A DNA stretch of 64,000 nt, taken from assembly GCA_963751025.1 (NCBI GenBank), contig CAVVTC010000010.1, forward strand, positions 74,121-138,120, read 5' to 3'. The stretch comes from an uncultured Acidobacteriota bacterium (lineage in GTDB: Bacteria > Acidobacteriota > Vicinamibacteria > Vicinamibacterales > UBA2999). Below the pieces are notes generated by a model. The model saw only the letters and a list, made by a program, of their open reading frames with translations. It searched no databases and had not been told where the DNA came from. Made by a program: the position numbers and the translations under genes. Shown in pieces: positions 587-62,240 of the stretch (the first letter of the stretch is position 1; each line of letters opens with the position of its first letter).

Positions 587-659
587 TCGGGATAAACTCA
601 AGTGTCTTCCAGTCCGAAATGCGCTTGACACTTCCATAGACCAATTGTATATTGGAGCT

Positions 660-8935: not shown

Positions 8936-9079
8936 ACACTCAGTTCGCTACGAGATACTGAGTACGACACAGGCGTCGTCATACACCAGCTAGAGCGTAT
9001 GTTCAGATTGAATAAACATTATTCGCCCTGAAGTATGGGATGCGAGAGATAAGGCATACATCGAGGAGATCGGAAAAAC

Positions 9080-10293: not shown

Positions 10294-10297
10294 GCCT

Positions 10298-11711: not shown

Positions 11712-11715
11712 CACG

Positions 11716-24527: not shown

Positions 24528-24649
24528 ACCTGATTCCTGGACCTCTCTCCCCAGTGGGCTATCCGTAGTCGCTATAGCGTCGTGCACTGGCGATTTGCCA
24601 GGTTTTTTTCAGTAATCCAGCCGCACCGCGTAGATTGGCCATGGCCACC

Positions 24650-37985: not shown

Positions 37986-39723
37986 GTGAATATCCACCGA
38001 CTGGACCCTGAACCTGCCTTTGCACAACCCCATCGGCCTCCATACGGACTCGAAGCACAAGACTGCCTCGAGTCCCGTCTCACGCCTCCTTCACCATCTG
38101 CAGAGGATCAGCCTCGCTACCGGGAAAGACTCAGCAACCCTCCAAGAGAGACCATGGCCCTATATCTCAGTGGTGATTTATAGTTACAATGGGGCACACA
38201 CGATCCGCGACAGCCTGGAAGTTTATCGCGTCTTAACTATCCCACATACGAAGTCATCGTTGTCGATGATGGCTCGACAGATACGACGGCGTCGATCGTT
38301 CAAGCCTATGGTTCCAGTTTATCAGCACTGAACATCGAGGACTTAGTAATGCCCGCAATACAGGCATGCAGGCAGCTCATGGCGAGATCGTGGCTTATAT
38401 TAATGCCGATGTCTATCCAGACCCACATTGGTTGAGCATCTGGCGATCACCTTTATCGCACCAACCATGTCGGGGTGGGCGGCCCCATCTCATGTCCGAC
38501 GACGGCGGCTGGATTGCCGATTGCGTAGCCAATGCACCGGGTGGGCCCGTCCATGTGCTCCTTTGCGACCGAGATGTCGCGCACATTCAGGTTGCAATAT
38601 GGCCTTTCGCAAAAGTACCCTGCAGTCGATCGGCGGATTCGACCCACGATACCAATAGCCGGCGATGATGTCGATGTGTGCTGGCGACTCCAGCGACGCG
38701 GATGGACACTTGGCTTTCATCCCGAGGCCGTTCTTTGGCATCGCGATCATTACTCAATTCGCACGTACTGGAACCAGCAAAAAGGTCACGGCAATGCCGA
38801 GATTTTACTCGAAGAAAAATGGCCATTGGCAAACCGTGAATTCGGCTATTTGGCCTGGTCGGGTCGGCTCCACAGCAGACATTTAAACCGAGCGATCAAC
38901 CTGCGACAGGACCATATGCCTCAAGGTGGTGGAGCCACGTACGGTGTCAACACTTTCAAGAATCTGGGTCATATGTGCTCCCCGTGCTACCCTTGATGCC
39001 GTCGTGGTATTTGCTAACCGGGGCTCTGACGGTGCTCGCCCTGCTCAGTGTGTTATGGTCACCCTTGCGCTACAGCCTGCCATTGCTGATGATCGCCGTC
39101 AGCGGCCCCCTCGTCCAAGCGGTATTACGGGGGAACGCCGCGATTTTTGCTTCTGGCGTCGCAGTCACCTACCATGCGCTTAAAGTATGGGCTCTTAACC
39201 GCATATCTGCACTTGCTACAACCGATCGCCCGCCTGTATGGCCGTCTCAACAAGCGCCTCACCCGGCAACGGGGCCATCAGCAACTGAGGCTACTCTGGC
39301 CCCGCACCATGACGATTTGGCGCGAGCATCATCGGGCTTCCGCCAATCCGCTACAATCCTTGAAAACGACATTATGCGAGGACGCCCTGTTTGTTCAACA
39401 AGGTAGCAGTCGAGACCGCTGGGATCTGGAAGTGCGCGGGGGATTATTCTGGCAAGGTCCAAACCCGTATGATCGTTAAAGAACCAGGGGCCAACAAACC
39501 CATCGATTCGTTTTCGGGCATGGCCGATGGGATCGATTTATGGCGTTGCCTTAAGCCTACTCTTTACCCTCCTGTGTATAGGAGCGATTTTAGATCAGGC
39601 CTATGGGTCGCAATATTCTCGGCTGTGTACGCCATCACGGTCATTTACCGCATGTGGCAGGAGAGCGCCTGGGCCATGTCAAACCTGCTTGAAGGACTCA
39701 AACGTCTGGGGGCGAGAGAGTAG
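37986..39723 (+). pseudogene. Family-2 glycosyltransferase with a C-terminal membrane domain and many frame breaks. The start is uncertain.
   Basis: ISVVIYSYNGAHTIRDSLE, (V)VVDDGSTDTT (frame-hopping), GEIVAYINADV, GCNMAFRKSTLQSIGGFD and DVDVCWRLQRRGW are present. TM-rich tail pieces extend to the stop at 39723. Confidence 0.65.
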
Positions 39724-42870: not shown

Positions 42871-44046
42871 CTACATGAAATTGCGCGTATGCAGTGCAGA
42901 TAGAGCGGCGGACTGTGCCTCGTCAAAACCGAGTCTGACAAGGCGCTTTTGACGCCCTTCATCCATGTCGCGCTGCAGCTTTTGCACGCGATCCCAGCCA
43001 GCGCGAATCGCATCGTGTTCCCAGCTACCGGCGGCGAGCAGAATGAGCGCGTCAAACACCTCTTCGTTGAGGCCGGCGGTGTAGGCGAGTGCGTCATGAC
43101 GGCGATGGACGGCCACGGCGAGACGCGCCCGTAGTGTGGGGTCCTCAACGGTATGGTGCGCAAGATGCGCAAGGCCAAATGCAACGTGACGTGCTTCGTC
43201 TTGGGCAGCCAGTCGTGCAACCTCTCGCGTGATCAAGTCTGGGGCGTTCTCATGAAGAAACCATAGCAGCGAAAGGAAGCTGCCTTCGCCAAGCACCGAC
43301 AGCAAAAACGACGCAAGCGCAAAGTCCGGTTCATCAACGAGGGTTTTCAGTGAGGACTGCCCTCCGGTAGTCGATAGTCCTGGGTGCGACCGGCGCAGTA
43401 ATATCCGCCGTGTGAAAACTTCGATGTGCCGTGCTTCGTCTGCCGCCTGGATGGCGAGTAGCTGCATGACCTCGCGGAAATGTGGGTGTATCTGAGCGGC
43501 GAACTTGGCGGGGATAATCAGCGCCGCAGTTTCGTTTTCAACCAGGTACGTCATGACCTGCACCACGGCGTCCTCAACCTCATCGGACAGATCACACGGC
43601 GCATCCCATGGGATGGCAGTAGACGGGTCCCACTGTGCCGCTGCGGCCTGGGCATAAAGTCGCGCTGCCTCATCGGCCCACAGATCCGCGCGCTTATGTA
43701 GGGGGAACTCGAACACTGGCGCGCCTGCTTCAACCGTGGCGCCACGCGCTGCCAGCCCCCAGCTTCCCGGAGCGACCGCCACCACGCCGTCGGCCGTGCC
43801 GGCCTGCTGCGCCCCACGCCAGCGGCCAATCTGTGCGCCGCCGCGCGTGATCACCGCACAATGCGGGTCGATGAGGGAGAGCGGATGCCCCTGCGCCCGG
43901 CACCATCCACGCAGATGCACGGCAAACTCAGGGGCGCGACCACTGACTTGTACAGCTCCCCCGATTGGTAATCGGGTCAGGGCGCGCTTGATAAGCACAT
44001 GACCACCCTGATCGAGAGCTAACTCTCCGAGGTCCAAGACCATCAT
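42871..44046 (-). CDS. Ferritin-like di-iron carboxylate protein with an N-terminal extra domain.
   Basis: There are two E..DExRH-type ligand motifs (ENETAA..ADEARHIEVF and GEGSF..AQDEARHVAFG) in an intact 391-aa ORF. Confidence 0.7.
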   Translation of the reverse strand: MMVLDLGELALDQGGHVLIKRALTRLPIGGAVQVSGRAPEFAVHLRGWCRAQGHPLSLIDPHCAVITRGGAQIGRWRGAQQAGTADGVVAVAPGSWGLAARGATVEAGAPVFEFPLHKRADLWADEAARLYAQAAAAQWDPSTAIPWDAPCDLSDEVEDAVVQVMTYLVENETAALIIPAKFAAQIHPHFREVMQLLAIQAADEARHIEVFTRRILLRRSHPGLSTTGGQSSLKTLVDEPDFALASFLLSVLGEGSFLSLLWFLHENAPDLITREVARLAAQDEARHVAFGLAHLAHHTVEDPTLRARLAVAVHRRHDALAYTAGLNEEVFDALILLAAGSWEHDAIRAGWDRVQKLQRDMDEGRQKRLVRLGFDEAQSAALSALHTRNFM

Positions 44047-44898
44047 GCGTAACGCCCTACCAGATCGTCAACAAATGCATCAATCGTTCCGAAACGGGCG
44101 ATCGATCGGTCCAGCAGCGCATACTGCCCCGTGCGACCGGGACGCCATGCCTTCAGCCCTTCGAGATCGAGTAACGGCCGCACCTCCGGATCATCGTAAG
44201 ACATGGACAGCAACAGTTCGCGAAATCGACCAATGAGGGTCCTCGGGTGCATGGTCGAGCACGGTAAAGTTACAGTGGTCGTATTCACTGGTTTGCGTCA
44301 GCACGCGCTTGCTGCCCGAAGGCAGGGTCCCCTCAGTGCCAAACAGCAGATAATTGCCGTCGATCATGCACGCCGCGTCGACCTCACCAGCGATCAATGC
44401 CCTCGCCGCATCGCGTTCGCCCCCGATGTGATCCCCGTGCTTGCCAACCAGCACATCAAACTGTCGGACCTTGAAATCGCGATGGGGCTCCAGCCCCGCT
44501 TCAGCCAGATGCAATAAGGGGATCAAGGTCGCTTGAGGCGAATCGCCAGCGCCCACGCCGATCGTCTTTCCACGCAGATCTTCAATGGACTGAATCGGTG
44601 CATCGGCACGCACGACGACGACACTCGTCAGATCGCAATCGGTGTCTCGCATCGCGATCGCTTCGACTTTCCGGCCCACTCGTGTGGCCACTTGCTTAGC
44701 TTGCAACCAGGCAAGTGGCGAATTCCAGGCGACATGATAATGACCGGCGAAGCAACCTTCCACTTGACGTTCATAGTTCGAGTAGAGAATGTAATCGAAG
44801 TCCAATCCCCGTTGCGCAAACCATTGTTTGAACCCGTCCCAGATGGTGACGACTTTGGGATCGTAGGCAACTGCGCCCATCAGCAGTGTATTAGACAT
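44043..44898 (-). pseudogene. PhnD/periplasmic-binding-fold protein without a signal peptide. There is one frame break near ~44240.
   Basis: MSNTLLMGAVAYDPKVVTIWDGFKQWF..GHYHVAWNSPLAW..LRGKTIGVGAGDSPQATLIPL... The tail continues in ORF 44043..44288. Confidence 0.65.
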
Positions 44899-46792: not shown

Positions 46793-47297
46793 GATACAGT
46801 TCCCATTCTATCTATATCTGTCAGTATATCGTTCAGGTAGACAAGCACGCTGGCCAAGACGGTTTGCGGTTTCCAGCTTCGCATGCGGGTAGCTGATACC
46901 GTTATACTTGCTGCACCACAGATTCGACTATATCGACAAATCTGTATCTATATAGATTTGAATAACGCATATGTCAAATTGGAAATATCAATAAGAAAAG
47001 CCGGACACATAGCCTTTCCAACACGCCTGAGGATGAAAGTGCCCGACGATATCTTGAAATTGGCAAAACAAGCGACAGGGTTGAACAATTGCGAAGCCCT
47101 GAGCAAGCTGCTAGGATGCCCACATCGCTGGCCAAAACTTGCACGATCACGAATTGAAAAAGCAGCGCGGCATGCTTCAGCAACATCGGTGGTTAAACGC
47201 GAAGCCAGCACCCGGTATTGATCGATCAGTTTTTGCCGCGTTCATCTGGAAAGCTATGTAGAACATTAGCGACACACACAAAGAAGGAGACAACTCA

Positions 47298-48083
47298 ATG
47301 CCAGACAACATGATCGCAGAAAAAGACGGCGTCATTGGATGGGTGATTTTCGATCACCCCGAGCGGCTCAATGCCGTGACGCAGGATATGTGGATTGCCC
47401 TGGGTAACATCCTGGATGATTTTGAAAAAGATGATGCCGTGCGAGTGGTCGTGCTCAAAGGGGCCGGCAATCGGGCCTTTGTCTCCGGCGCGGATATTTC
47501 GAAATTTGCCAACAATCGTCGCAACGCAGAGGAAGTCGAGGCCTCGAATCGCCTCACTGGCTATGCGCGGCAAAAATTGGCAAACTTTGACAAACCCACG
47601 ATCGCGATGATCAACGGCTATTGTTTGGGTGGCGGCCTGGCAATTGCGCTGTCTTGCGATCTGCGCTTTGCCGCTGAAGGCTCGACATTCGGCATTCCAG
47701 CCGCCAAACTGGGCGTGGGATATGGGGCTCAGGGTATCGGGGTCTTACAGGCACTGGTTGGACCGGCCTATACGCGGGAAATTCTTTTTACCGGCCGCCG
47801 TTTTGATGGCGAGGAGGCGTTGCGTATGGGGTTGCTTAACCGCCTCATGTCTCGCGACGAATTGGAGCCCTACGTGCGGGAGTACGCGGAGACGATCGGC
47901 CACAATGCCCCCCTCACTTTAAAGGCGGCCAAGCTGGCCAGCACGGAGCTCCTGAAAGACGAAGAACACCGCGATCTGACATTGGTCCAGCAGGCGGTGG
48001 ATACGTGTTTTAACAGCGAGGACTACCAAGAAGGGCGCATCGCGTTTATGGAAAAACGCAAACCGGCTTTCAAGGGCCGCTAA
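47298..48083 (+). CDS. Enoyl-CoA hydratase/isomerase (crotonase) family protein.
   Basis: VVVLKGAGNRAFVSGADI and INGYCLGGGLAIALSCDLRFA are present in an intact 261-aa ORF. Confidence 0.9.
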   Translation: MPDNMIAEKDGVIGWVIFDHPERLNAVTQDMWIALGNILDDFEKDDAVRVVVLKGAGNRAFVSGADISKFANNRRNAEEVEASNRLTGYARQKLANFDKPTIAMINGYCLGGGLAIALSCDLRFAAEGSTFGIPAAKLGVGYGAQGIGVLQALVGPAYTREILFTGRRFDGEEALRMGLLNRLMSRDELEPYVREYAETIGHNAPLTLKAAKLASTELLKDEEHRDLTLVQQAVDTCFNSEDYQEGRIAFMEKRKPAFKGR

Positions 48084-48145: not shown

Positions 48146-48310
48146 ATGGTTTATCGCATGATCACGATAGGTGCCATGGTCATCGTCCTGCTCACAGGAC
48201 AGACCTGGGGCGCACAGCACCAAGCGCCACCTGTCGTCACAGAGACGGCCACACTGCCGTTGTCCAAAATCGTTCTCTACACCAGTGGTGTCGGTTATCC
48301 AGCTCGCTAA
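48146..48310 (+). pseudogene. N-terminal stub (~50 aa) of a signal-peptide protein, cut at the 48.3 kb junction.
   Basis: MVYRMITIGAMVIVLLTGQTWGAQHQAPPVVTETATLPLSKIVLYTSGVGY then runs into a stop within the junction sequence. The family is uncertain. Confidence 0.35.
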
Positions 48311-48435
48311 GTAGCTGTGCGGCGAGCTCTTCGCGACTGGACTCCTTGCGAGTCGGCATCTCGGACCCGAGATGCATCGGTACTCGCGCGGCGCAGGCGG
48401 CCGCCACAGGAACCGCTCTCAGATGGGGCTGGTGG

Positions 48436-48493
48436 GGAACGCCAGGACAGGCGTTCCGGTTTCATCACGGGGAACGCCTTGACGGCGTTCCCC
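48436..48493. repeat. Two tandem hairpins sharing the stem core GGAACGCC/GGCGTTCC, downstream of recA.
   Basis: Hairpin 1 (48436-48457) is GGAACGCC-aggaca-GGCGTTCC. Hairpin 2 (48469-48493) is GGGGAACGCC-ttgac-GGCGTTCCCC. They lie 34-90 nt past the recA stop and may act as a terminator. Confidence 0.6.
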
Positions 48494-48526
48494 AGGAGGC
48501 CTTGCTCGGTTTGGTGAGAACCGTTG

Positions 48527-49555
48527 TCAGACGACGGCGACTTCCGCTTCGCGAACCAGGCCGAGCTCGCGGCGCACGCGCTCCTCGATAGTCCGGCGGA
48601 CGTCCGGGTTGTCCTTGAGGAACTGCTTGGCGTTCTCGCGGCCCTGGCCGAGCCGCTCGCCGCCGTAGGCGAACCACGCGCCGCTCTTCTCGACGATGCG
48701 CTTTTCGACGGCCAGATCGAGCAGGTCGCCCTCGCGCGAGATGCCCTCGCCGTACATGATGTCGAACTCAGCCTCACGGAAGGGCGGGGCGACTTTGTTC
48801 TTCACGACCTTCACGCGCGTGCGTCCGCCGATCACCTGATCGCCGTCCTTGATGCTGGCGATGCGGCGGATGTCGATGCGCACCGAGGCGTAGAACTTCA
48901 GCGCGCGGCCGCCGGTGGTCGTCTCCGGGTTGCCGAACATCACGCCGATCTTCTCGCGGAGCTGGTTGATGAAGATGAGGGTCGTTTTCGATTTGGAGAC
49001 GACGCCGGTGAGCTTGCGGAGCGCCTGCGACATGAGGCGTGCCTGCAGACCCATCTGCGCTTCGCCCATCTCGCCTTCGATTTCCGCCTTCGGCACGAGC
49101 GCGGCCACCGAGTCCACGACGACGACGTCGACGCTGTTCGAGCGGATGAGGACCTCGACGATCTCGAGCGCCTGCTCGCCGTTGTCTGGCTGAGACACGA
49201 GCAGGTTCTCGAGATCGACGCCGAGCTTCTGCGCGTACTGGGCGTCGAGCGCGTGCTCGGCATCGACGAACGCGGCCATGCCGCCGTTTCTGTGAGCTTC
49301 GGCAATGACCTGGAGCGCCAGCGTCGTCTTGCCGGATGACTCCGGCCCGAAGATCTCGATGACGCGGCCGCGGGGCAGGCCTCCGATGCCGAGGGCGTAG
49401 TCGATGCTGATGGAGCCGGTTGAAATGGATTCCATCGGGGCAATGGCCCCGCGCTGTCCGAGGCGCATGATCGAGCCCTTGCCGAACTGCTTCTCGATCT
49501 GGCCGACGGCGTTGTCGATGGCTTTGGTGCGTTCCTTCAGGTCTTCGAGCGGCAT
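48527..49555 (-). CDS. recA: Recombinase A.
   Basis: [19 protein letters not shown] (Walker A), [42 protein letters not shown]. The start was chosen at [14 protein letters not shown].. Confidence 0.95.
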
Positions 49556-49793
49556 GCGATCTCCTTGGCGTGTGGCCGTGTTGAAATCAGTGTGGCTTGG
49601 TGGTGTGACAGAGGTGGTCACGGCCGCGATCGATCCTAAGAGCGTGCCGAGCGAAAGTCAAGCGAAAATATGTGCGATATTCGGAGTGTTTCACGTCATT
49701 CTGAACTGGGGCGTTCGCAGAAACCGCCGAATCCATCGGGGTGTTTTCGCGCAGTTTCTGCAACGGTCCGCGGCTGGTCCGAAAGGACCGGCC

Positions 49794-50978
49794 CTACATT
49801 CGCTCGACCGCGAGCGCGACGCCGTTGCCGCCGCCCAGACACAGCGCCGCGATCCCCTTCTGCATCCGTCGCTGCTTCAAGGCATAGAGCAGCGTCGTCA
49901 GAATGCGGGCGCCGCTCGCGCCAATCGGATGGCCGAGCGCGACCGCGCCGCCATTCACGTTGACCTTCTTGGGATCGAGGCCGAGCTGTCGCATCACCGC
50001 GATCAGCTGAACCGAGAAGGCCTCGTTGATCTCGAAGAGATCGACGTCCTCCATCGTCCATCCCGTCTTCGCGAGCACGCGGCGGATGGCCTCGACCGGC
50101 GTCATCAGCAGGTGCTTCGGGGCCAGACCGCTCGACGCCTGCGCAACGATGCGGGCCATCGGCGTCAGTCCCAGCTCTTTCGCGCGCGCGCTCGACATCA
50201 CGACCAGTGCCGCGGCGCCGTCGTTGACCGGGAGGCGCGTTGCCCGCGGTGACCGTGCCGTCCTTCGGCGAACGCCGGCGCGAGGCGCGGCAGCGCCTCG
50301 AGCGTCGTGTCGCGGCGAATCGACTCGTCGTGCGACGAAGACGATCGCCGCGCCTTTCTTCTGCGGGCAGCGTCACGGGAAGGATCTCCGCGGCGAAGCG
50401 CCCGGCATCGGTGGCCGCGGCCGCCTTCTGGTGACTCTCGAGCGCGTAGGCGTCCTGCGCCTGCCGTCCGATTCCGCACTCGGTCGCCACGACTTCTCCG
50501 GCCTTGCCCATGTGCCAGTTTTCGAAGCTGCACCAGAGGCCGTCGTTGATCATCGAGTCGATGACCTGGCCGTGCCCCATGCGCAGGCCTTCGCGCACGC
50601 GCGCCAGCAGATACGGCGCGCTGCTCATCGACTCCATGCCGCCCGCAACGACGACCGAGGCGTCGCCGGTCGCGATCGCCTGGGCGGCCAGCATCACCGC
50701 CTTGAGCCCGGACCCGCAGACCTTGTTGATGGTCAAGGCCGACACACGGTCGGACAGCCCTCCACGCAGCGCCGCCTGACGGGCCGGCGCCTGTCCGAGC
50801 CCGGCCGAGACGACGTTGCCCATGATGCATTCGTCAACGATCGCCGGGATCGACGCCGGCCCGGCGCACAGCCTCCCGGACGACCATCGCCCCGAGCTGC
50901 GGCGCGGTGAAGTCCTTGAGCGCGCCGAGGAACTTTCCCGTCGGCAGGCGGGCAGCCGAGACGATGACGGTTTCCATG
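49794..50978 (-). pseudogene. Acetyl-CoA C-acetyltransferase (thiolase II) with about three frame breaks.
   Basis: METVIVSAARLPTGKFLGALKD.., ..INKVCGSGLKAVMLAAQ (active Cys).. and the C-terminus ..[34 protein letters not shown] (ORF 49794..50201) are present. The middle is read in the frame of ORF 49696..50823. Confidence 0.85.
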
Positions 50979-51041
50979 ACCTGATTCTAAGTCGTTCGAT
51001 GGGTTCGGGCTCGGAGTGTTAACCGGCGGCCCCGGCCCCCG

Positions 51042-51560
51042 TTGTATCGTCAGCAGCGACCGGACTGGACCGCGGAGGAGCGCATGGACTCAGAAATCAT
51101 CATCGTCCCGTCTCTGTTCTTCATGATTGGCTGGATCGTCTTCGTCATCGTGGACGGGGTCCGGCGGCGACAGCAGACCAGGGTCTTTACCGAGTTTCAC
51201 GGCAAACTGCTGGATCGCATCGGCTCGGCCAAGGAGTTCGGCGAGTTCTTCGCCAGCGATGCCGGGAGTCGTTTCCTGAGCTCGATGTCGAGCAGCGAAA
51301 GCGGCGCGCCGCAGATACGGATTCTGCGCTCGTTGCAGACCGGCCTCATCCTGCTCTCGCTGGGCATCGGCTTGTTCATCCTGACCAACGAGAGGACCTT
51401 TTCTCTCGAGGCCATGGACGGCCTGGTGGTGACCGCGACGGCGGCGGCGGCGATTGGTGCGGGGCTGGTCGTGTCCACCGCGATGTCCTATGTGCTCTCG
51501 AAGCGGATGGGACTCATCGAGCGGTCGCGGGTCAGACGGGATCAGGACGCCTCGGTCTAG
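51042..51560 (+). CDS. Hypothetical membrane protein. The start is uncertain and could be MDSE.. at 51084.
   Basis: TM segments IIIVPSLFFMIGWIVFVIV, LQTGLILLSLGIGLFIL and AAAAIGAGLVVSTAM are present. It lies directly upstream of the ECF sigma gene. Confidence 0.5.
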   Translation: MYRQQRPDWTAEERMDSEIIIVPSLFFMIGWIVFVIVDGVRRRQQTRVFTEFHGKLLDRIGSAKEFGEFFASDAGSRFLSSMSSSESGAPQIRILRSLQTGLILLSLGIGLFILTNERTFSLEAMDGLVVTATAAAAIGAGLVVSTAMSYVLSKRMGLIERSRVRRDQDASV

Positions 51561-51563
51561 ATC

Positions 51564-52064
51564 GTGGCGCGTCTCGACGAGCGGGCGTTTGCGGCGTGCT
51601 ATCAGCACAACTCGCGTGCGCTCTGGTCCTATCTGTATCGCGTGACGGGCAAAGCGTCCGACGCCGACGACCTCGTGCAGGATGCGTTCTGCCGGCTGTT
51701 GCAGGCTGATGTCGGAGCGCTGGGGGATGAAGAGTTGCGGCGATACGTGTTCCGCATCGCCAGCAATCTGATGGCCGATCGGTGGCGCCGATCGAAGCAG
51801 GAGCAGAGCTGGCTGGACCGGTTGCGAGGCGTGAGCGAGGCGCAGATGGACCCGGAGTACGACGACAGCGTCTCGCGCGAGTTTGCGGCCCTGAAATCAC
51901 GGGACCGGGCCCTGCTCTGGTTGGCGTATGTCGAAGGGGAGAGCCACCAGGACATCGCCGACCAGCTGGGCCTGTCGCGTGGAAGCATCAAAGTGCTTCT
52001 GTCGCGAGCCCGGAGCCGGCTCAGGGATTTGCTGGCGGCCAAAGGTCTTACCGCGAGGGCATGA
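51564..52064 (+). CDS. ECF-type RNA polymerase sigma-70 family factor.
   Basis: Region 2 reads DADDLVQDAFCRLL and RRYVFRIASNLMADRWRR. Region 4 reads LWLAYVEGESHQDIADQLGLSRGSIKVLLSRARSRL. Confidence 0.85.
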   Translation: MARLDERAFAACYQHNSRALWSYLYRVTGKASDADDLVQDAFCRLLQADVGALGDEELRRYVFRIASNLMADRWRRSKQEQSWLDRLRGVSEAQMDPEYDDSVSREFAALKSRDRALLWLAYVEGESHQDIADQLGLSRGSIKVLLSRARSRLRDLLAAKGLTARA

Positions 52065-52365
52065 TGCTGGAGTGGGCGAAGTCATGAGCTAGAGTGGTTG
52101 CTGCGGACCATGACGGCGGACGAGGAACAGGACGTCGCGGCGTACATGTCGAAGCTGGCCCATGGCGGCGAGCCGGCATGCCCCCCGTCTGCCCGCCGCC
52201 GATCTGCTGTGGGTGAAAGCGCAGATGCTCGAGCGGTGGGAAGCCGAACGCCGCGTGCAGGCGCCGCTCGACATGATGGAGCCGCTGCAGATCGGCGCCG
52301 GCCTTCTCGCCGCCGGCATTCTGCTGTTCTGGTCGCTGCCGGCGCTGCTACGCGTCATCTCGTAA
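52061..52365 (+). pseudogene. Probable small anti-sigma/membrane-anchored partner, frame-broken.
   Basis: The ATGA start overlaps the sigma stop. Pieces read ..LRTMTADEEQDVAAYMSKLAHGG.. and ..PAADLLWVKAQMLERWEAERRVQAPLDMMEPLQIGAGLLAAGILLFWSLPALL (a C-terminal TM helix), in two to three frames. Confidence 0.4.
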
Positions 52366-52400
52366 CGCGACAGCTCAACACGCACAATCAACGCTGACTG

Positions 52401-52516
52401 CACGTGACTTCGCGTGCGTCAACGAACCGCGGAGACGCGGAGGCACGGAGGTTTTTTTCTCCGCGTCTCAGCGTCTCCGCGGTTCGTGAGTGCACGCGAA
52501 GTCGCGTGAAGTCACG
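52401..52516. terminator. Long nested inverted repeat between convergent genes.
   Basis: ACTTCGCGTGC (52407-17) pairs with GCACGCGAAGT (52492-502). CGAACCGCGGAGACGC (52423-38) pairs with GCGTCTCCGCGGTTCG (52471-86). An alternative inner pairing is GAGACGCGGAG (52432-42) with CTCCGCGTCTC (52459-69). There is a T7 run in the apical region. Confidence 0.6.
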
Positions 52517-55033
52517 CCAGCAACGTTCGCTGACGCGTCGAGACGTCGTTCGCGATCGGCCGCGAAGCGTGTAATCCCCGCCAGGATCGACGGCGCATCC
52601 AGGTGCGCTTCGGCGATGACGTCCGGCTCGAGACCGCCCGTCAACCACTGGTTGTCCCAGTCCGATGTGAGTGAGTATTCGTCGGTGAGCGGCCCGACGG
52701 CTTTGAGCGGCCACACGCGGCGTGTGCCGGTGCTGACGACCATCAGGTCATACAGCGCCTCGGGTGGGAGGACCGCATTCCGGTACGACTCGGGCTGGCG
52801 ATCGAACAACTCCTCGCTGATCGCCGCGATAACCTTCACGTTGACGCCCGCGGCTTCGAGCGTGGGAAGGACGCTCACGAGATTGACCGTCGAACTCGAT
52901 CCCTGCGTGACGACGTAGCCGTGCTTCGGCTGGCCGGGCGCGAAGTCACGAATGACGTAGAAGCCTTTGGCCGCCGCCATCAGATCGGTGTCCGCGAACG
53001 TCGCGCGGTTGGCGACGGGGAAGTCCGGTCGGGCGACTTCGAGCGTGATGATCCCGACCTTCGCTTCGCGCGCGGCGATCTCGGCCGCCGCGAAGTAGGC
53101 CGGCGCCACGTCGTTGTAGTCCCAGAAGTTCAGGTGAATCGCCTGACCGCGCGGGAACAGCTTCCACACCTGCGGCGCGAAGATGCCGAAATGCGTGCGG
53201 CCATCCGCCGCCGTCTCGGGGCCCGAGTGCCCGACCAGGATGTGCAGCACGCCCATGCGGAACTTGCTGTCCTGACTCTGCTGACTCCAGACCCGCGCCG
53301 GCGTGTACATGAGCGGCGTGAACGCGCCGTACGTGCCGCTGATCGCCCACACGCCGGCGAACTTCGCCGGGTCGAGCGACGCGCTCTGACTGACCAGCCC
53401 GATCGCCGTTGACGCGTTGCCGGCCTCCTGGATGGCCGCCTTGATCCGCGTCCCGAGCGGATTGGTCTCGGGGTCGTAGTGTCCCCAGATGCTGCCGTGC
53501 TCGAGATTGATCGACTCGGACAGGTCGGCGGCAATCGTGAGCATGCGATTCCCGGTGACGTAGTTGAGCCACTTCACGATCTCGGAGATTGCGCGTCGCG
53601 TGCCGGCGATCTCACCCGGCTTTCGAAACAGCGTGATCCCGACTTCCTTCTCGGCGCCGGAGACGGCGTTGGACGTCTTGACCTTCTGCGGCTCGACCGG
53701 CAGGTTCTTCACCCGCAGGCGATCGTCGAGGAACGGATCGCGATCCGCCGCGATGCGGAGCGGCACATCGTCGCGCAGCGAATCGCCGATCTCGACCAGA
53801 TGATCGGCGAGCCAGTCGCCCAGGCCGTTGCCATCGAGCACCGACATGACGATGTCGAGGTTGGTCTTGTATTGAATGAGACGCTCGCGAGTGTCCTTCG
53901 TCGGTCCCTGCGTGATCCCCTGGAACTGGACGCCGTAGCGCTTCTCGAACGTCCTGGCCAGCGCGACGAAGTACTCCGAGTTCATCTTCATCGCGTAGGG
54001 GTGGCTTGGATAGCCGACCACCTGCTCGCCATGATCCGGAATCTTGCCGCTGACCGCGGCGGGCCAGTAGCCCTTCGTGGTCTTGCCGATGAGCACGATC
54101 GGACGACGGTCTGCCGGATCTGAGTCCTCCAGGGCTTTGAGCCCGGCGACAACCTGCCCGTAGTCGTTGCCATCGGGAACAAGGAAGACGTTCCAGCCGT
54201 ACGAGGTCCACTGCTCGACGAGGCGATAGCCGTCGTACTTCTTGTTGATGACGCCGCCGATGAGCGAGTCGTCTATACCCGCGTTGTTGTCGGAGATCAT
54301 CACCCGCAGCCGCTTGCCGGTCTGCATGGCCAGGGCCTGCGTCTTCAGCTCCTGCGCGTGACCTTCGGTCATCGCGAACTCGCCTTCGAACGCGACGATC
54401 TTCGGCGCGTCCATCGACGCGCCGGCGATGTCCCAGAACGCCGCCTTGCCGGCGGCGGTGGCGATGCCAATGCCCGAGGGACCGCCGTTGACGTCGTTGG
54501 TGACATCGACGCTCTCGGCATGTCCGGCGAGGGCCTTGATGCCGCGGGCTTTGGCCTGCGCGAACAGCGGCATGTCGGCGAGCCCCTGATCCTGGAGCAG
54601 CGTGGTCGAGCGCTCCGGCACCGCGGCGGAACCCGAGCGCGTCAATCGGCAGGATGGCGACGGCGGGATCGACGTAGTACCGCCGGTTGCCCGTGGCCTG
54701 ATACCGTCGCTCGAGCGCCTGTCCCATCACCATCCAGAGCGCGTAGCAGGTCGGGATGCAGTGCCCGCCGGCGAGCATGAACTTGTCGGAGTAGGGGTGC
54801 TTGGGCCGCCGATAGTCGAACCGCAGTCCGCCCAGCTTCGGGCCGGCGAGATGCAGGGCGACGTTGTACGGGGTGTATGCCAGCGGCCCGCCGAAATGTC
54901 CTGTCTGCGAGTAGTTCCCGAGCAGCACGAGGGCCATGCACGTCATGAACCCCACGTCTTCCATCCGCTGGCGATCGTAGGACGCGTCCAGCGACTGAAC
55001 GGGGGACACCAGTCTTTCGCTCGCAGTAGCCAA
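52468..55033 (-). pseudogene. Long transketolase-family thiamine-diphosphate enzyme (~850 aa) with one frame break near ~54640.
   Basis: The N-terminus in ORF 53612..55033 reads ..GNYSQTGHFGGPLAYTPY..MLAGGHCIPTCYAL... The body in ORF 52468..54645 reads ..NGGPSGIGIATAAG..EGEFAMTEGHAQE..ISDNNAGID..HSGPETAADGRTHFG.. Confidence 0.75.
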
Positions 55034-55070
55034 TCCTCGACCTCCGTGATGGGCCGCGTGAATGCGGTCC

Positions 55071-55343
55071 CTACGAAACCTGTATGTAGCGAACCACCTG
55101 CTCGCCGAGCAGGCTGTCGAGCCGCGATCGGATCAGGGCGGCCGATCGCTCGACCTCACGCTGCCAGTGGGCGTCCTTCGCACGGACGCGGAGCACGCCG
55201 TTGTGCAGCTCGACGGACGTCACCTTGTCCACGGCTGGACCTACCGCTGTACGCCAGGAGAACGCGACCTTCTCCGGTGTCAGCGGCGCACGGCGCAGCA
55301 CCGCGGCGAGCGCGTCTGGCATGACACGATGGACAGGCGTCAC
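55071..55343 (-). CDS. DUF721 (DciA-like) protein.
   Basis: The 90-aa ORF reads ..LAAVLRRAPLTPEKVAFSWRTAVGPAVDKVTSVELHNGVLRVRAKDAHWQREVERSAALIRSRL.., which is the typical DUF721 pattern. Confidence 0.7.
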   Translation of the reverse strand: MTPVHRVMPDALAAVLRRAPLTPEKVAFSWRTAVGPAVDKVTSVELHNGVLRVRAKDAHWQREVERSAALIRSRLDSLLGEQVVRYIQVS

Positions 55344-55384
55344 TGGGCCCTACACGATACCATCCGAGGCCGCGAGGGTGCGAG

Positions 55385-56599
55385 GTGCGAAGGTGCGAAA
55401 GTGCTGTCGCGCCCCGCACTCTCACACCATCGCACCATCGCACCCTGAATTGTGGTCAAATTCTGAACGTGATCGCACCCCAGTTCACTCGCATCTCCCG
55501 TCGGGCCGGCATCGGCGTCGCGGTCTCGATCCTCTTCGCGGTGGCAGTCGCGCCTGGACCGAGCCCGGCCGCCGCACAGCCGCGCGGGCAGACAGCGGCT
55601 TTTCCCTGCGACGTCCAGACCACCGAGCGGATCGTGGCGGTCGGGGACGTGCACGGCGCATTCGACCAGTTCGCCGCCATCCTGCGCACCACGGGACTGA
55701 TCGACATGCGCAACCGCTGGATCGGGAAGAAAGCGGTGCTGGTCCAGACCGGCGACGTGCTCGACCGCGGACCTGATTCGAAGAAGGCCCTCGACTTGCT
55801 GCGCAAGCTCGAAGGAGAAGCACAGCGGGCGGGAGGTCGCGTCGTCGCGCTGCTGGGCAACCACGAGTTCATGCGCCTGGTCTCCGATTGGCGGTATGTC
55901 AGCCAGGGTGAGACGGACGCCTTCAAGAACGCGGACTCGGTGGATCTGCGCGACCGCGCCTTCGTGGTGTTCAGCACCGAGGCCGAGAAGGCGGCTAAGG
56001 CCGTCGGGAAACCCTTCGACGCCGCGGCGTATCGCGAGCAGTTCATGAAGGAGATTCCCCTCGGCAGTCTGGAGATGCGGTTCGCGTTCGACGCCAAGGG
56101 CGAGTACGGGGCCTGGGTTCGTCAGCGCGCGGCGGTCGCACGCATCAACGGCATCCTGTTCCTGCACGGTGGAGTCAGCGACACGGCTGCTTCGATGGGT
56201 TGTGAAGGGATCAACGCGGCCGTGCGCAAGGATCTGCTCTCGCTGCCAATACCGCTCGAGCAGGTGCCGACGCTCTTCTCGGCGAGCGAAACCGGTCCGC
56301 TCTGGTATCGGGGGCTCGCCAACGAATCCGAAGCATCGCTCGCCCCGACGCTCGACTCGATCCTCCAGCGAATGGGAGCGCGCGCCATCGTGATTGGCCA
56401 CACGACCGTGCTGCCGGGAAGAATCAATACCCGCCTCGGCGGCCGCGTCATTCAGATCGACACGGGGATGGTGAACGGCCAGTTCTATCCCGGCGGCGTC
56501 GCCTCAGCCCTCGAGCTGCACGGCGACAAGATGACGGCGATCTATCTCGATCGACGCGAGCCACTCGCCGTACCGAGCCTGGCGCCGGCGACCAAATAA
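55385..56599 (+). CDS. Secreted calcineurin-like metallophosphoesterase. The start is uncertain.
   Basis: GDVHGAF, QTGDVLDRGP and LLGNHEFM (PPP-type motifs) follow a signal-like segment, GIGVAVSILFAVAVAPGPSPAAAQ. Confidence 0.8.
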   Translation: MRRCESAVAPRTLTPSHHRTLNCGQILNVIAPQFTRISRRAGIGVAVSILFAVAVAPGPSPAAAQPRGQTAAFPCDVQTTERIVAVGDVHGAFDQFAAILRTTGLIDMRNRWIGKKAVLVQTGDVLDRGPDSKKALDLLRKLEGEAQRAGGRVVALLGNHEFMRLVSDWRYVSQGETDAFKNADSVDLRDRAFVVFSTEAEKAAKAVGKPFDAAAYREQFMKEIPLGSLEMRFAFDAKGEYGAWVRQRAAVARINGILFLHGGVSDTAASMGCEGINAAVRKDLLSLPIPLEQVPTLFSASETGPLWYRGLANESEASLAPTLDSILQRMGARAIVIGHTTVLPGRINTRLGGRVIQIDTGMVNGQFYPGGVASALELHGDKMTAIYLDRREPLAVPSLAPATK

Positions 56600-56606
56600 C
56601 AACGGA

Positions 56607-57437
56607 TTACAAGGCGAACAGGACGACGGGTTCGCCCAGCCGGGCGATCCGGTCGTCGTAGTGCTTCACGATCAGATCGCGCCGCAACATGATCGCCTCC
56701 TGTTCCTGCCTGGTCAGCGAGTTCCCGACCGCCGCTGCGAGAGCCTCGGGAGTGAGCGTACGCAGGCGCTCGAGCAGACCGCGGTCGCATCGCGTCAGGC
56801 CTTCCGGCTTCAGGAGCGATCGCCCGAGCCGGAACGCGCGCGTGTGATCGATCAGCCACATCGTAAAGTCGCCCGTCCAGAGGATGTTGCCCTGGTTCCG
56901 ATCTTTGTTCTGAATCAACTCGTCGAAGACCCGCATGACCTGGAGCTGCTTCGTGGTCTTGACCGGATCGGGTCCCAGCGTTTTTGCCTTGGTTCGACCC
57001 TTCTCATCCATCTTGACGTCGTCCACCCACCAGGTGACGGCCGCCATCTTGCCGTCGACCGCACGCTCGACCGACATCGGAACCGTCGTGAGGCCGATCA
57101 ACCTGGCGACGCGGTATCCGGCGATGTTGTAGCGGTACGTGTCCTTGAAGTTGACCTCGGTATTGCGTCCCGCTTCGAAGACCGGTTTGGCTTCGTCAAT
57201 CGTCTGGATGTGCACGTCGTGCGTCACCTGTCCGTCCGAGGCCGTGGCGCGACGAGAACCGGTGACACCGCCGCCGGCGTCCCGCGGATTCGAGATCCTG
57301 GCTTTGAGCAGGAAGGTCTCGAGCTGTTCGGTGGACAGCGACGGTAATGCCGCGGGTGTGCCCTGGGCGAGAAGAGCACGAGAAACGCCCGCGAACAGAA
57401 CCAAGCCCAGGACCATCGAGCGCCGACTGACGTCCAT
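56607..57437 (-). CDS. Secreted hypothetical protein with a PI3/PI4-kinase-like catalytic-loop motif.
   Basis: The signal is MVLGLVLFAGVSRALLAQG. The motif is ..ELIQNKDRNQGNILWTGDFTMWLIDHTRAF.. (DRxxxN ... IDH). The 276-aa ORF is intact. Confidence 0.55.
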   Translation of the reverse strand: MDVSRRSMVLGLVLFAGVSRALLAQGTPAALPSLSTEQLETFLLKARISNPRDAGGGVTGSRRATASDGQVTHDVHIQTIDEAKPVFEAGRNTEVNFKDTYRYNIAGYRVARLIGLTTVPMSVERAVDGKMAAVTWWVDDVKMDEKGRTKAKTLGPDPVKTTKQLQVMRVFDELIQNKDRNQGNILWTGDFTMWLIDHTRAFRLGRSLLKPEGLTRCDRGLLERLRTLTPEALAAAVGNSLTRQEQEAIMLRRDLIVKHYDDRIARLGEPVVLFAL

Positions 57438-57476
57438 GCATGCCCCTTTCGTTTTGTGGTTGAGACGGACGAGATT

Positions 57477-60400
57477 CTACGACAGAGCAGCCAGTTTCGT
57501 GTCGGAGTTTCGCAACGCCAACACGCCGCTGAACAGACCCTGCATCAGATCAACGTGGTCGGCGAGCACCGCGAACAGTTCATCGCGATCGAGGCGAAGG
57601 GCCCGGCCGTCGCGTGTGACCGTCGCCCGCCATCCCGACGCCGTCCCGGCCAGCGTGTCAGCGACGCCGATCGTGGCCCCTGGCGGCGCCAGTAACGTTC
57701 CTGTGATCGGGTGCTCCAGGAGGACTTCACCCTGGACGATCTGGTAGACGGCCGGAGGCGCACCCACCTCGAAGAGCACAGCGCCGGCCTTGAGCGGAAT
57801 CTCGGGGGCGACCGCCGTCAACGCCAGCAACTGCGCCGCGGATGCCCTCGACAGCAGCGGATCCTGACGCAGAAATCGGGCGGCCGTCGCCGCGCCTGGG
57901 GCCGATCGGTCAGGTCGAAATCTGGGGAAGCGGCGCGAAGGGGACTCGGGGCGTGTCGCTCGCGAGGATCAGACCGAAGAGACTCTGCGCCAGCAGCACG
58001 TTGTCCGACACCATGGTCATGAAATCGTCCGCCGTGATGCGGAAGCAGACGGTCGGTTCGAGCGCACGCACCGTGCTGTGGAACGCCGTGCCCTGGAGCA
58101 CGTCCTCGAAGCCGATGACCGCGGGCGGAGTAATCTCGGCGCCCGCCCTGGCTCCCTCGATCGTGGCCGCGCCTCCCTCGAGCAGGAACAGGACATCGGC
58201 TGCGGGCGCTCCCGACTGACACAGGTCGCGACCGGAGGGGTGCCGGACCTCTTCGCCGGCCTGCGCGATGCGGAACAGCTCGTCGACCGAGAGCGACGCG
58301 AACAGCGGAATCTCCCGAACGCGGTCGGCGAGCTCGACGATCGGCAGCGACTCGGTCGCCGCAGCTGCCGACAGACCCGGATGCCGTGCGGCCAGCGCCC
58401 ACGAGGCTGCCTCGATCACCACGCGATCGTCTTCGGACCGATGGCTGGCGACGTACCAGAGGTCGTCGGCAAGACCCCAGATCTCGTTGCTGGCCGACGA
58501 AGTGAACCGCTGCGGCGGCAATCACCGGGTCGTCTTCGTGAACGAGCTGCGCCAGCGTGTCTTCGAGATCGCGCGGGCGGCTCTTGAGCACGAGGTTCGC
58601 GTAGCGGACTTTGTCACTCAGCGGCGAGTCGTCCAGGATCGGCATCACGCGTTTGCGCACGACGCCGCCAAGGAGGTTGTCGAGATACTCGACCGCCGCC
58701 GCGCGCCGGCGGGATTCTCCCTGCTCGATCGTGTAGCGGGCCGCCGCGACATCGTCGCTGTGATAGAGCAGCCCCAGCAGCCGGTAGATCCGATCGATCG
58801 TGCGATGCAGCTTGTCGTGCAGAGCCCTGGCGAGCAGGGAGTCTTCGGCGTCGGGGGCGTGTCGCAGGAGGTTCTGTTGGAGCGTCAGGCCGTTGTAGTA
58901 GCGCGACGTTTCGCGTACGACGTGTGACTCGACCACCTGCCGTGGGCATGCGATGGCCGGGTGATCGCGCCGGAGTTTCTCGATGGCCGCGATCGCCTTG
59001 TAGCGCAGGAAGCCGTCGGGATCATCGAGCGACGCGACGAGCGCGTCCATCGACCGTTGCGTGCCGAGCTGCGCCAGCGTCGCGGGAATGTGACGACGAA
59101 TCCACACATGCTCGCGCTGATCGCGCAGCGCGTGGGCCAGGGCGCCAACGATCGTCTCGCCGTATCCGACGAGCGCCTCGCGCGCGGTTCCCTTCAGGGC
59201 TCGATGTCCGAGCAATGAGAGCAACCCGGGCACGAACAGGCCGTCGGACGCTCCCATTGCCCGCGCGCTGCGAATCGCCTTCTGGACCACCGCCTGATCC
59301 CGGTCGTAGAGCAGCGGGATGAGCAGCGCGCGAAACCGTGGATGCTCGATGTGCGCCAGCGCGGTGGCCGCTTCAGCGCGCCCCGCCGACGCGACCTCGC
59401 GGGCGTCCACGATCAGCTGCCGTAGCGCCGCTTCCGCACTCATGACGTCATCCGGTTGTCCCGAATTGGCCAGCGTGATCGCGGACGTCACGACGACGCG
59501 TGGCTCGGCATCGGTCAGGTGGCGGCGCATGAGGACCGTGGCATCCTCATGCTCGAGTTCAGCGAGGGCACGCAGCGCCGCCGCGCGCACGTCCACGTCC
59601 TCGTCCTGCACCATGCGGGTGACGGCCGGCATCCATCCCGCCGCTGCACGCGAGCGCGATACGGCCAGCGCGCGCAGCGTCCGGGCGCGCACGCGCGGCG
59701 AGGGGTGCTGAAGGAGCAGAGGCGTGACCAGATGCCGCTTGTCGAGTGCCTCGAGCATCTCGATGGCGTAGAGCACGGCGGCCTCGTCGGGATGCGAGAG
59801 CTCTTCGACGAGCGTTTCGATCGTCGCCGGATCGACCTCGGTGCGGATCGTCCCTGGCGCGATCGTGCGCGCCCCGATGCTGGCGCGGAACGCGCGCAAG
59901 TACTCACGCCACGCCACGAGCGCGACCGCAATCCAGATGGCAGTCATGACCAGGCTGACGTAGCTCAGACTTCGCCACTCGAGCGCAAGCCCCCACGGTG
60001 AAATCAGCACAAGGAGAAGCACGGCAGCGAAGGCTTTGCCGAACTTCTCCATCGTCACGTCGATGAATGGCTTGGCTCGGAATCGCAGTCCGGCCGGCAC
60101 CGGGAGGAACAGCACTTCCCGCGTGGTCTTGTCGAGCGAGTAGCGCAGCGTGCCGTCCAGCACACGTGCCGCTCCCACGGCCGTGAGCGACGCGGTCAGC
60201 AGAATGAGGGTGGCGCTTGCGCCGAGGCCGACCGGGAGCAGCAGGAGCGCGGCGGTGATTCCCCAGGAGCGGTGAATGCGACTCGTGAGCCCGACCTGCA
60301 CGACGAACCCGAAGATCGAGAGATACGCGCCAACTTCGGCGAGCAAGTCGGCGATCGATTCCTCATCCACCCGAAACGCCTCGGCAGCCATGCTGAGTTG

Positions 60401-61147
60401 CTGATCGACGACCGCCGCACCCATCACCGCGAGACCCACGACCGCCGCGAGGACGCGCAGTTGCCGGGACTCTGCCAGCAGACGCAGCGCCTCGCGTCCT
60501 CCAACTCCGCGATCCTCGTCGAATTCCGCGTGCTGCCCGTCGGTTCGGTGGCGGGCGATGCGCAGAACGATCGCCGCGCACGCCGCCAGGATGGCCGCGC
60601 TGACGAGGAGCAGGTTGTTCGATCCGAGCTCTCGGATCGTGAACTTGGTGATCGAGTTGCCGAGCGCACCGCCCAGGCAGGCCCCGCCGCCGATCAAGCC
60701 GAACAGCCGCTTGGCCTGGCGTGCATCGTAGACGTCGTTGGCCAGCGTCCAGAACTGACTGATGAGAAGAATCCCGAGAATCTGGCCGAAGACGTAGAGC
60801 GCGATCGTGACCCACACGGCCTCTGTCTTCAGCAGGACCCAGAACACACCGAGCAGGACGATGATGGCCGACTGGGTCAGCGGAACGACGTGCCGGCGGG
60901 GAAGGCGGCGCGCGGCGCTCCCGTACAGGTGCATGAGGACGCCGATGAGGACCGAAGACCCCAAGAGCACCCACGGCAGGTTGTCCGCTCCCAGGTGGTC
61001 GATGGCCTTCGACTTGGTGATGGGCTTGAGGATGTTGTACGCCGTCATCGCCAGGAACGAATAGGCGAACATGAGCAGCGCGACCGCGGCTTCGTCGGCG
61101 CGCACCGGCAACACCTTGCTCAGGAACCCGCTCACCCGTGAATCCAT
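57477..61147 (-). pseudogene. Fusion of a TLC/MFS-type (nucleotide-transporter-like) membrane domain, HEAT repeats and two cyclic-nucleotide-binding domains. There are two frame breaks, near ~58500 and ~57860.
   Basis: The N-terminal ~430-aa polytopic part reads ..FAYSFLAMTAYNILKPITKSKAI..QFWTLANDVY... The HEAT-like repeats read ..PRVRARTLRALA..DVDVRAAALRALAE... The cNMP domain in ORF 57910..58521 reads ..IPLFASLSVDELFRIAQ... A second is in ORF 57477..57830. Confidence 0.75.
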
Positions 61148-61213
61148 GAAAGAGTGGGCCGACGCTATCGCGGTTCACACTCGAGACGCAACCTGTTGCC
61201 GGGATAATGGGCC

Positions 61214-61786
61214 GTGCGTCTGATTCTGGCCTCAGCGTCCCCGCGACGCGCCGACCTGCTTCGCGAGGCTGGAATCGACGTCGAGGTTCAGCCGGCCGAC
61301 GTTGACGAGGACGTCATCCCTCACGAGCTGCCGGAGGCATACGTCCGCCGCGTTGCGGAGGCCAAGGGGCGGGCGATCAGCGGTCGCGCGCCGGGCCGCT
61401 TTGTACTCGCAGCCGATACCGCAGTGGTCGTGGACCGGGAGATTCTCGGGAAGCCGTCGCATCCCGAGGACGCGGCGCGGATGCTCCGGTTGCTCTCGGG
61501 CCGCATGCACCAGGTTGTCTCGGGCGTCTGTTTATTGAGGGACTGTCTGCCGGCGGTGGAGACCGTGGTCGAGGTATCGATGGTCGAGTTCGCCGCGTTG
61601 TCGCCGGCTGAGATCGAGTGGTACGTGGCCAGCGGGGAATCAATGGACAAGGCCGGGGGTTATGGGATCCAAGGCCTGGCATCGCGGTTCGTGACCCGGA
61701 TCGAAGGGTCGTATTCGAACGTCGTCGGGCTGCCAGTTGCCGTGGTGTACCGGATGTGCACTGAGGCAGGATTGCTGCTATCCTGA
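61214..61786 (+). CDS. maf: Maf-family nucleoside-triphosphate pyrophosphatase.
   Basis: MRLILASASPRRADLL.., ..DTAVVVDREILGKP.. and ..KAGGYGIQG.. are present. Confidence 0.9.
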   Translation: MRLILASASPRRADLLREAGIDVEVQPADVDEDVIPHELPEAYVRRVAEAKGRAISGRAPGRFVLAADTAVVVDREILGKPSHPEDAARMLRLLSGRMHQVVSGVCLLRDCLPAVETVVEVSMVEFAALSPAEIEWYVASGESMDKAGGYGIQGLASRFVTRIEGSYSNVVGLPVAVVYRMCTEAGLLLS

Positions 61787-61817
61787 CGGGAGCTTCCGCT
61801 TCAAGAAGTCCTTATCT

Positions 61818-62230
61818 ATGAGCCACAAAGCCGCAAAGATTGGCGTCACATCGCTCGTGCTGCTGACCGCGTTCGGGGTCCTGCTCTACACCACGCTGGG
61901 TGAGAGCATGCAGGTACTGACAAGTACGTCGATGAAGTCGTGGCCCAGCCGGACACGTGGAAGGACAAGAACCTCCAGGTGCACGGCAACGTCGTGCCCG
62001 GCTCGATCGGCCGCAAGAAGGATTCGCTCGACTGGCGGTTCGACATTCAGCGGAACGGCCAGACGCTTCGCGCCTACTACACCGGCATCGTCCCCGACAC
62101 CTTCAAGGACGACTCGGAAGTGGTGCTGACCGGCCGTCTCACGTCGGACGGGTTCAAGGCAACCGAGATGACCGCGAAGTGCCCGTCGAAGTACGAGGCT
62201 GCGCCGCCGCTGGCGGTTCCTTCACAGTAG
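61818..62230 (+). pseudogene. ccmE: Cytochrome c maturation haem chaperone CcmE (CXXXY variant) with one frame break near ~61915.
   Basis: The N-terminus with its TM anchor reads MSHKAAKIGVTSLVLLTAFGVLLYTTLGESMQ... ORF 61940..62230 reads ..DKNLQVHGNVVPGSI..RFDIQRNGQTLRAYYTGIVPDTFKDDSEVVLTGRL..FKATEMTAKCPSKYE... The usual His position is occupied by Cys in C-P-S-K-Y. Confidence 0.8.
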
Positions 62231-62240
62231 GGTCCCGACC

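Follow-up and report, generated by a model that had tools for sequence, protein, structure and literature searches.

A blunt inter-phylum junction, very probably a chimeric join of a long-read metagenome assembly, between Entotheonella-like and Vicinamibacterales DNA

The window (the whole stretch of DNA analyzed, 64 kb) changed from one bacterial lineage to another at 48298/48299, and the switch was abrupt, without transition, and with one gene severed on each side. The left block (1 to 48298; G+C content 0.560) was assigned by taxonomy and synteny to Entotheonella-like (Candidatus Tectimicrobiota) chromosomal DNA, while the right block (48299 to 64000; G+C content 0.654) was assigned by its collinear relatives to the chromosome of a soil bacterium of the Vicinamibacterales (Acidobacteriota); the two sides thus came from different phyla. 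Judged from sequence comparison, the junction is very probably an inter-phylum chimeric contig produced by long-read metagenome assembly rather than a product of biology: DNA of two co-occurring unrelated bacteria would have been fused end to end in one deposited contig of 836,145 bp, severing one gene after 51 codons and the other after 26 codons. A preliminary description of the same DNA had placed an abrupt junction, with a truncated gene on each side, at 48280 to 48320 and had preferred a chimeric join of two lineages. The breakpoint found here falls inside that interval, both truncations were confirmed by alignment to the full-length genes of relatives, and the preferred reading was supported by the composition step, the taxonomy switch, and the continuity of the relatives across this point (see below).

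The breakpoint was blunt. Homology to the left lineage (contigs L081 and L090) ran to 48298 and homology to the right lineage (contigs L082 to L088) ran from 48299 onward, without filler, shared bases, or repeat, and the two severed genes converged on 48298/48299 and both missed their 3′ parts. The missing halves of both genes were absent from the 64-kb window, and the far end of either putative insert lay outside it.

On the left, the last intact gene was that of an enoyl-CoA hydratase (ECH; 47298 to 48083, plus strand; Pfam ECH_1, E = 6.8e-54; exact sequence of P0271). It was followed by the 5′ stub of a gene for a secreted protein of ~660 aa (48146 to 48298, plus strand), of which 51 codons including the signal peptide were present and the 3′ part was missing. 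The stub started 63 nt past the ECH stop, and the same offset was seen for the next gene in a JGI soil contig of 9,242 bp (ECH 97% identical), in which the post-ECH gene had at least 264 aa and reached the contig end; the post-ECH gene encoded 667 aa in L081 (ECH 91% identical), and its homologue in L090 (ECH 90% identical) encoded ~654 aa. The stub aligned to residues 1 to 51 of the L081 and L090 proteins (...LPLSKIVLYTSGVGY); past residue 51, these proteins read on as FERKG or FQRQG, and the DNA homology of the stub to its relatives ceased after TAT at 48298. From there, the frame of the stub entered foreign sequence and ended at a TAA (48308 to 48310). The ORF from 48146 had been described beforehand as stopping after ~50 codons at PAR plus a stop, and this holds in the form of 51 native codons within a 54-codon composite ORF.

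On the right, the 5′ stub of a PAS/HATPase_c/receiver hybrid histidine kinase of 648 aa (48299 to 48377, minus strand) retained 26 codons plus 1 base, and its 3′ part was missing. The stub, MHLGSEMPTRKESSREELAAQLLSEL with its start at 48377, matched the N-terminus of the kinase located after recA in L082 to L085; the full kinase (648 aa) in L082, L083, L084, and L085 began MHLGSEMTTRKESSREELAAQVLSELASHISDF (e.g., 11139 to 13085 of L083). RecA was virtually identical in these four contigs, and the window matched them nearly base for base from recA through a group of hairpins to ...GAGCTGG, the last base of which was window position 48299; beyond it, the divergence from L082 to L085 was complete. 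The earlier observation that a minus-strand ORF from ~48380 loses its continuation at the junction was therefore correct, with 26 of the 648 codons left. The stub was identified only through the near-identical contigs L082 to L085: L001 and L002 (recA 86 to 87% identical) had other genes downstream of recA, and tblastn of the stub peptide gave noise. A search of the 90% cluster of the PAS kinase found no member on the 836-kb contig among the members listed, a weak result that agrees with a chimera. Assignment of the stub to recX was rejected, since the relatives showed a PAS sensor kinase there.

The first intact gene on the right was recA (48527 to 49555, minus strand; Pfam RecA, E = 3e-140; 100% identical to P0121). 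Hairpin-forming GGGGAACGCC repeats (48426 to 48501; repeats I9 and D7) lay between recA and the kinase gene and were also present in L082 and L084; these hairpins are evidently native to the right lineage and not part of the junction. The spacer between recA and the kinase gene varied among relatives, with GGGGAACGCC hairpin pairs in the window, L082, and L084 and GGTAGCC-rich repeats in L083/L085 (11028 to 11130).

Each lineage continued differently in independent assemblies, and the junction was unique to this contig. All five right-lineage contigs reaching the breakpoint (L082, L083, L084/L086, L085/L087, and L088) read through it with a full-length gene, as did all three left-lineage contigs reaching it (L081, L090, and the JGI 9,242-bp contig) with continuous sequence. 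The junction 40-mer gave 0 matches in 185,579 species-representative genomes and 241 million JGI metagenome records (stretches of which may be masked), which shows that it is not recurrent in these two collections.

The composition of the window changed at the same place. The G+C content was 0.560 in 1 to 48300 and 0.654 in 48301 to 64000, and the maximum-likelihood single change-point of G+C across the whole 64 kb was located at 48313 to 48319. A split at 48298 gained 219.6 nats of log-likelihood, while the best internal split of either part gained at most 9.2 nats, so the local G+C heterogeneity of the left part was comparatively minor. The five G+C counts of 60-nt lines given in the preliminary description (27 at 47281, 32 at 48241, 43 at 48541, 45 at 50401, and 40 at 45001) were all exact on recount. 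GC3 of long ORFs was ~0.5 to 0.7 on the left versus ~0.8 to 0.88 from recA on, in line with the G/C-rich third codon positions already noted from recA onward. A comparison of tetranucleotide profiles between the sides, which had been proposed as a check, gave distinct profiles: the correlation was 0.83 to 0.91 within the left (8-kb pieces) and 0.97 within the right (0.83 to 0.97 within sides taken together) versus 0.62 to 0.82 between sides. Composition and oligonucleotide signature thus stepped at a single point, as looked for in a chimera.

The gene-level taxonomy changed to an unrelated lineage at this same point, as also looked for in a chimera. The left block encoded PanC, a phosphonate ABC transporter (substrate-binding protein, ATPase, and PhnE), imelysin plus di-haem peroxidase, an HTTM protein, ferritin, ApbE, PAC2, isochorismatase, amidohydrolase, acyl-CoA dehydrogenase (ACAD), DJ-1, and ECH. 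At 90% identity, both its ECH and its phosphonate ABC ATPase clustered with Candidatus Entotheonella proteins (from serta, palauensis, and factor), and the more distant named matches of ECH were from Entotheonellaceae (77%) and Tectimicrobiota (73%). Two gene orders were shared with relatives: (i) PAC2, glycosyltransferase, isochorismatase, amidohydrolase, ECH, and 667-aa gene in common with L081 and (ii) amidohydrolase ... phosphonate-binding protein, ACAD, DJ-1, ECH, and next gene in common with the JGI contig. Over its final ~13 kb, as far as the breakpoint, the left block ran collinear with both L081 and the JGI contig. By its sequence and synteny, the left block is evidently ordinary chromosome in the native gene order of its own lineage.

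Two further features of the left lineage were observed. The plus-strand region 9040 to 14237 carried genes for imelysin, di-haem peroxidase, imelysin, and an HTTM/vitamin-K-carboxylase-like protein (467 aa, with lumenal domain), and then ferritin; this cluster has the look of a module for iron uptake, in which the HTTM partner is unusual. The ECH 90% cluster members P0281 and P0282 came from an NCBI/ENA contig of 14,622,937 bp, which, if not itself chimeric, would mean that public data include a nearly closed Entotheonella-like genome of very large size.

The right block displayed, by Pfam, the order recA, thiolase, small membrane protein, ECF sigma factor, transketolase-like protein, metallophosphatase, 276-aa protein, TLC/MFS-HEAT protein, Maf, CcmE, and CcmF. 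RecA matches at 95 to 97% carried the name Vicinamibacterales, and the best species-representative genomes for recA were Vicinamibacterales and other Acidobacteriota (86 to 87%). This block shared synteny and a DNA identity of 96 to 98% with five independent contigs of Vicinamibacterales (up to 995 kb long), among which L086 (a 994,928-bp contig) was 97.7% identical over 13.8 kb in a megablast alignment beginning exactly at 48299. On the right side, the window differed from its relatives by 17 to 43 substitutions per kb, and the relatives differed among themselves by 16 to 41; the window-specific substitutions in intact right ORFs fell at third codon positions in 45 of 69 cases (22 of 25 in recA), and they follow a pattern of purifying selection. 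Lying within strain diversity and showing this third-position bias, the right block is that of an ordinary native strain, recA included, from a widespread Vicinamibacterales population, and not an ameliorated or decaying transferred fragment.

It had been suggested beforehand that the gene content on the right pointed to a different lineage, and the taxonomy agreed, the TLC-HEAT-cNMP fusion and CcmE being native to Vicinamibacterales. The best hits of proteins on each side, likewise proposed as a check, were from Tectimicrobiota on the left versus Acidobacteriota on the right; best hits in the same taxon on both sides, the outcome named in advance as speaking against a chimera, were not seen. 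The 1109-aa protein (57818 to 61147, minus strand) had an MFS/TLC-type transporter domain plus HEAT repeats; its relatives had 1078 to 1222 aa and a weak cNMP-binding match, and its position was kept in all Vicinamibacterales relatives.

Exact protein look-ups led to the same place from both sides: (i) the right genes recA (P0121) and Maf (P0256) and (ii) the left genes of ECH (P0271), acyl-CoA dehydrogenase (P0285), ferritin, 409-aa oxidase, PhnE, ABC ATPase, ApbE, and 391-aa protein were each found on an NCBI/ENA contig of 836,145 bp. From the matching bp total and sources, both sides appear to lie on one deposited contig of 836,145 bp, and the join would thus be in the deposited assembly and not from cutting or stitching the window. 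The possibility that two records had been stitched together when the window was built was rejected, since both sides map to one 836,145-bp record.

The consensus of the window was rich in indels. The right flank had 29 window-private indels in 11.3 kb, mostly single-base insertions, versus 8 and 11 for two low-indel relatives; 13 of the 29 lay within 2.7 kb of the junction, where the enrichment was only moderate, and a second cluster lay at 52.1 to 52.5 kb. This indel density gives an indirect hint of low depth. The second cluster (52087 to 52540) was located around an anti-sigma-like ORF and the 3′ end of the transketolase-like gene. The thiolase gene (49794 to 50977, minus strand) was broken by five single-base insertions, as seen by alignment to L001 and L003 (frames 3, 1, 3, 1, and 2), while thiolase was intact with 392 aa in L083 to L088 and had 356 aa in L082; either the consensus is very poor in this patch or the gene is a true pseudogene. 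None of the five insertions lay within a long homopolymer, and the neighboring recA, 725-aa, and 1109-aa ORFs were intact. The transketolase-like gene encoded 725 aa here versus 816 to 839 aa in relatives, and a frame plot of its N-terminal part (54600 to 55330, minus strand) showed frame shifts near 54640 and 55000.

Split or partial genes were also present in the left block, at 3000 to 5190, 10262 to 12871, 24030 to 25778, 32141 to 33698, 38532 to 39406, and 44043 to 44898. They included an MFS gene as two ORFs, panC without its C-terminus, di-haem peroxidase, the second imelysin, an amine oxidase fragment, B12/radical-SAM, homocysteine S-methyltransferase (two ORFs), an MTHFR fragment, and glycosyltransferase; the left phosphonate-binding protein had 235 aa versus 284 aa in a relative. 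With this many split genes on the left, frameshifts were not restricted to the right block. Such indel-rich sequence fits, as expected, a weakly polished long-read assembly. The assemblies of the closest relatives bore Flye-style contig names, and several of the best genome matches were Microflora Danica MAGs, for which Nanopore reads had been assembled with metaFlye and the result taken through a single Medaka round; the source of the window was presumably assembled by a similar Nanopore/metaFlye approach.

Mechanistically, the join most likely goes back either to a chimeric long read or to a mis-join in the assembly graph, at a place where an error-prone long-read assembly had low coverage; two unrelated molecules or partial assemblies would thereby have been linked bluntly at arbitrary points. 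Blunt joins without a shared repeat are not the commonest route of misassembly. No adapter 12-mers were found at the join, and no direct or inverted repeats were found flanking 48298/48299; a blunt join without shared repeat or adapter makes a chimeric read or graph mis-join likelier than a repeat-mediated collapse. The 54-codon composite ORF and the kinase stub are then by-products of the join, and the site is without function.

The contigs of a contaminated bin, or those of a scaffold, might instead have been concatenated, on purpose or by a pipeline, without N spacers, so that the junction would be a contig boundary and still an artefact. Two contig ends would look just like this, blunt and mid-gene on both sides, and one record does hold both sides; however, no second blunt junction was evident in the window, the right 13.8 kb being collinear with L086, the left final ~13 kb with L081 and the JGI contig, and the internal G+C splits all being at most 9.2 nats. 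In addition, related assemblies had plain assembler contig names and sizes of 195 to 995 kb, against which a native contig of 836 kb is unremarkable. Concatenation is accordingly regarded as unlikely.

A genuine, very recent, and unameliorated inter-phylum integration by illegitimate, homology-free recombination, with one gene broken in the recipient and one in the donor, is considered very improbable. It would have moved at least 15.7 kb including recA from Vicinamibacterales into a large soil Entotheonella-like genome, or at least 48.3 kb in the reverse direction. The junction does sit in the deposited contig and was not made with the window, and illegitimate recombination is able to produce blunt joins without shared bases; but the supposed insert holds recA and core genes at 96 to 98% DNA identity to free-living strains, with no amelioration and with substitutions in the pattern of purifying selection. 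Given this strain-level identity, the transfer would need to be extremely recent, to include recA, to be homology-free, and to cut the donor gene. Its edge showed neither mobile-element machinery nor target duplication, neither missing gene half was present elsewhere in the window, the junction was missing from all eight related contigs, and its 40-mer was absent from the 185,579 genomes and 241 million metagenome records searched.

IS elements had been noted at the window start, and transposase genes were indeed found: a frameshifted fragment of a DDE (IS5/Tnp4-like) transposase gene (105 to 640, plus strand) and an intact 396-aa TnpB-type (IS200/IS605 family OrfB) gene (645 to 1835, plus strand) with a C-terminal CxxC...CxxC / DADVNAA motif. 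An antisense ORF (297 to 1736) gave no family match. Bases 1813 to 1852 had a 97.5% match to the sequence just downstream of an IS200/IS605-associated transposase gene in 95 plasmids (from Klebsiella, Xylella, Variovorax, Allochromatium, and others), and this stretch is probably a conserved element end or guide-RNA scaffold. When the window was compared with plasmids by megablast, the only matches were similarity at the level of recA and a single IS-associated stretch of 40 bp, and neither pointed to a plasmid or ICE setting.

The preliminary description had offered as its alternative the edge of a very large island or integrative element with its far end marked by these IS elements, and this was not borne out: the TnpB gene and DDE transposase fragment at the window start and the lower G+C of the left block are what such an island would show, but it is hardly credible given that the IS elements lie 46 kb off and core genes including recA lie on the right, that the left block, with panC, ApbE, and genes for phosphonate transport and acyl-CoA metabolism, is syntenic with its relatives and is ordinary chromosome of an Entotheonella-like bacterium, that neither an att-like repeat nor an integrase or tRNA occurs at the junction, that the Vicinamibacterales contigs show no similarity to the first 2.2 kb of the window, that the left block does not contain the missing part of the kinase gene, and that an island would not have its own cargo gene cut at codon 51. 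The signs of integration searched for at this edge were an integrase or transposase, a tRNA target, and a direct repeat or att site, and none was found: no integrase, transposase, or IS end was located near the junction (the neighbors being ECH and recA), the tRNA scan of the 64-kb window gave no tRNA, and the Rfam scan found no element. Nor was accessory or mobile cargo found in place of core genes, with recA, Maf, CcmE/F, and thiolase on the right and panC on the left, all in native orders.

A public NCBI/ENA contig of 836 kb thus appears to merge two phyla. Bins holding this contig would gain foreign markers, e.g., a Vicinamibacterales recA beside Entotheonella-like genes, and such markers would skew taxonomy, completeness/contamination estimates, and conclusions about horizontal transfer. 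Natural-product gene clusters are sought by mining Entotheonella-like genomes, to which chimeric contigs could misattribute genes. The join would be of no biological importance, since nothing operates at the site; its relevance is one of data hygiene, and such a join can be placed within ~20 bases by reading sequence alone.

The junction resembles a genomic-island boundary in its composition step and in the change of best-hit taxonomy along the contig. At the edge of an island, a tRNA or att repeat and an integrase or IS are usually seen, together with a target that is intact or duplicated and with cargo of an accessory kind. In contrast, both flanking genes were cut here, and the "cargo" was core chromosome with recA at strain-level identity to a population of another phylum. 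Long-read metagenome assemblers including metaFlye yield inter-phylum chimeric contigs, which can be told by abrupt changes of G+C, of coverage, and of gene-level taxonomy, along with indels that lack read support (bioRxiv 10.1101/2025.04.22.649783). The window shared with these chimeras a G+C and taxonomy step inside one long contig together with frame-breaking indels; they were diagnosed by 100% read clipping and coverage steps, while the present join was judged from sequence comparison. In-silico chimeras usually retain adapter sequence, unlike the join in the window. Chimeric reads of library preparation, in which ligated unrelated fragments bridge low-coverage contigs, would resemble the join in its blunt, filler-free fusion of two unrelated molecules at arbitrary positions, next to which the local quality was poor here.
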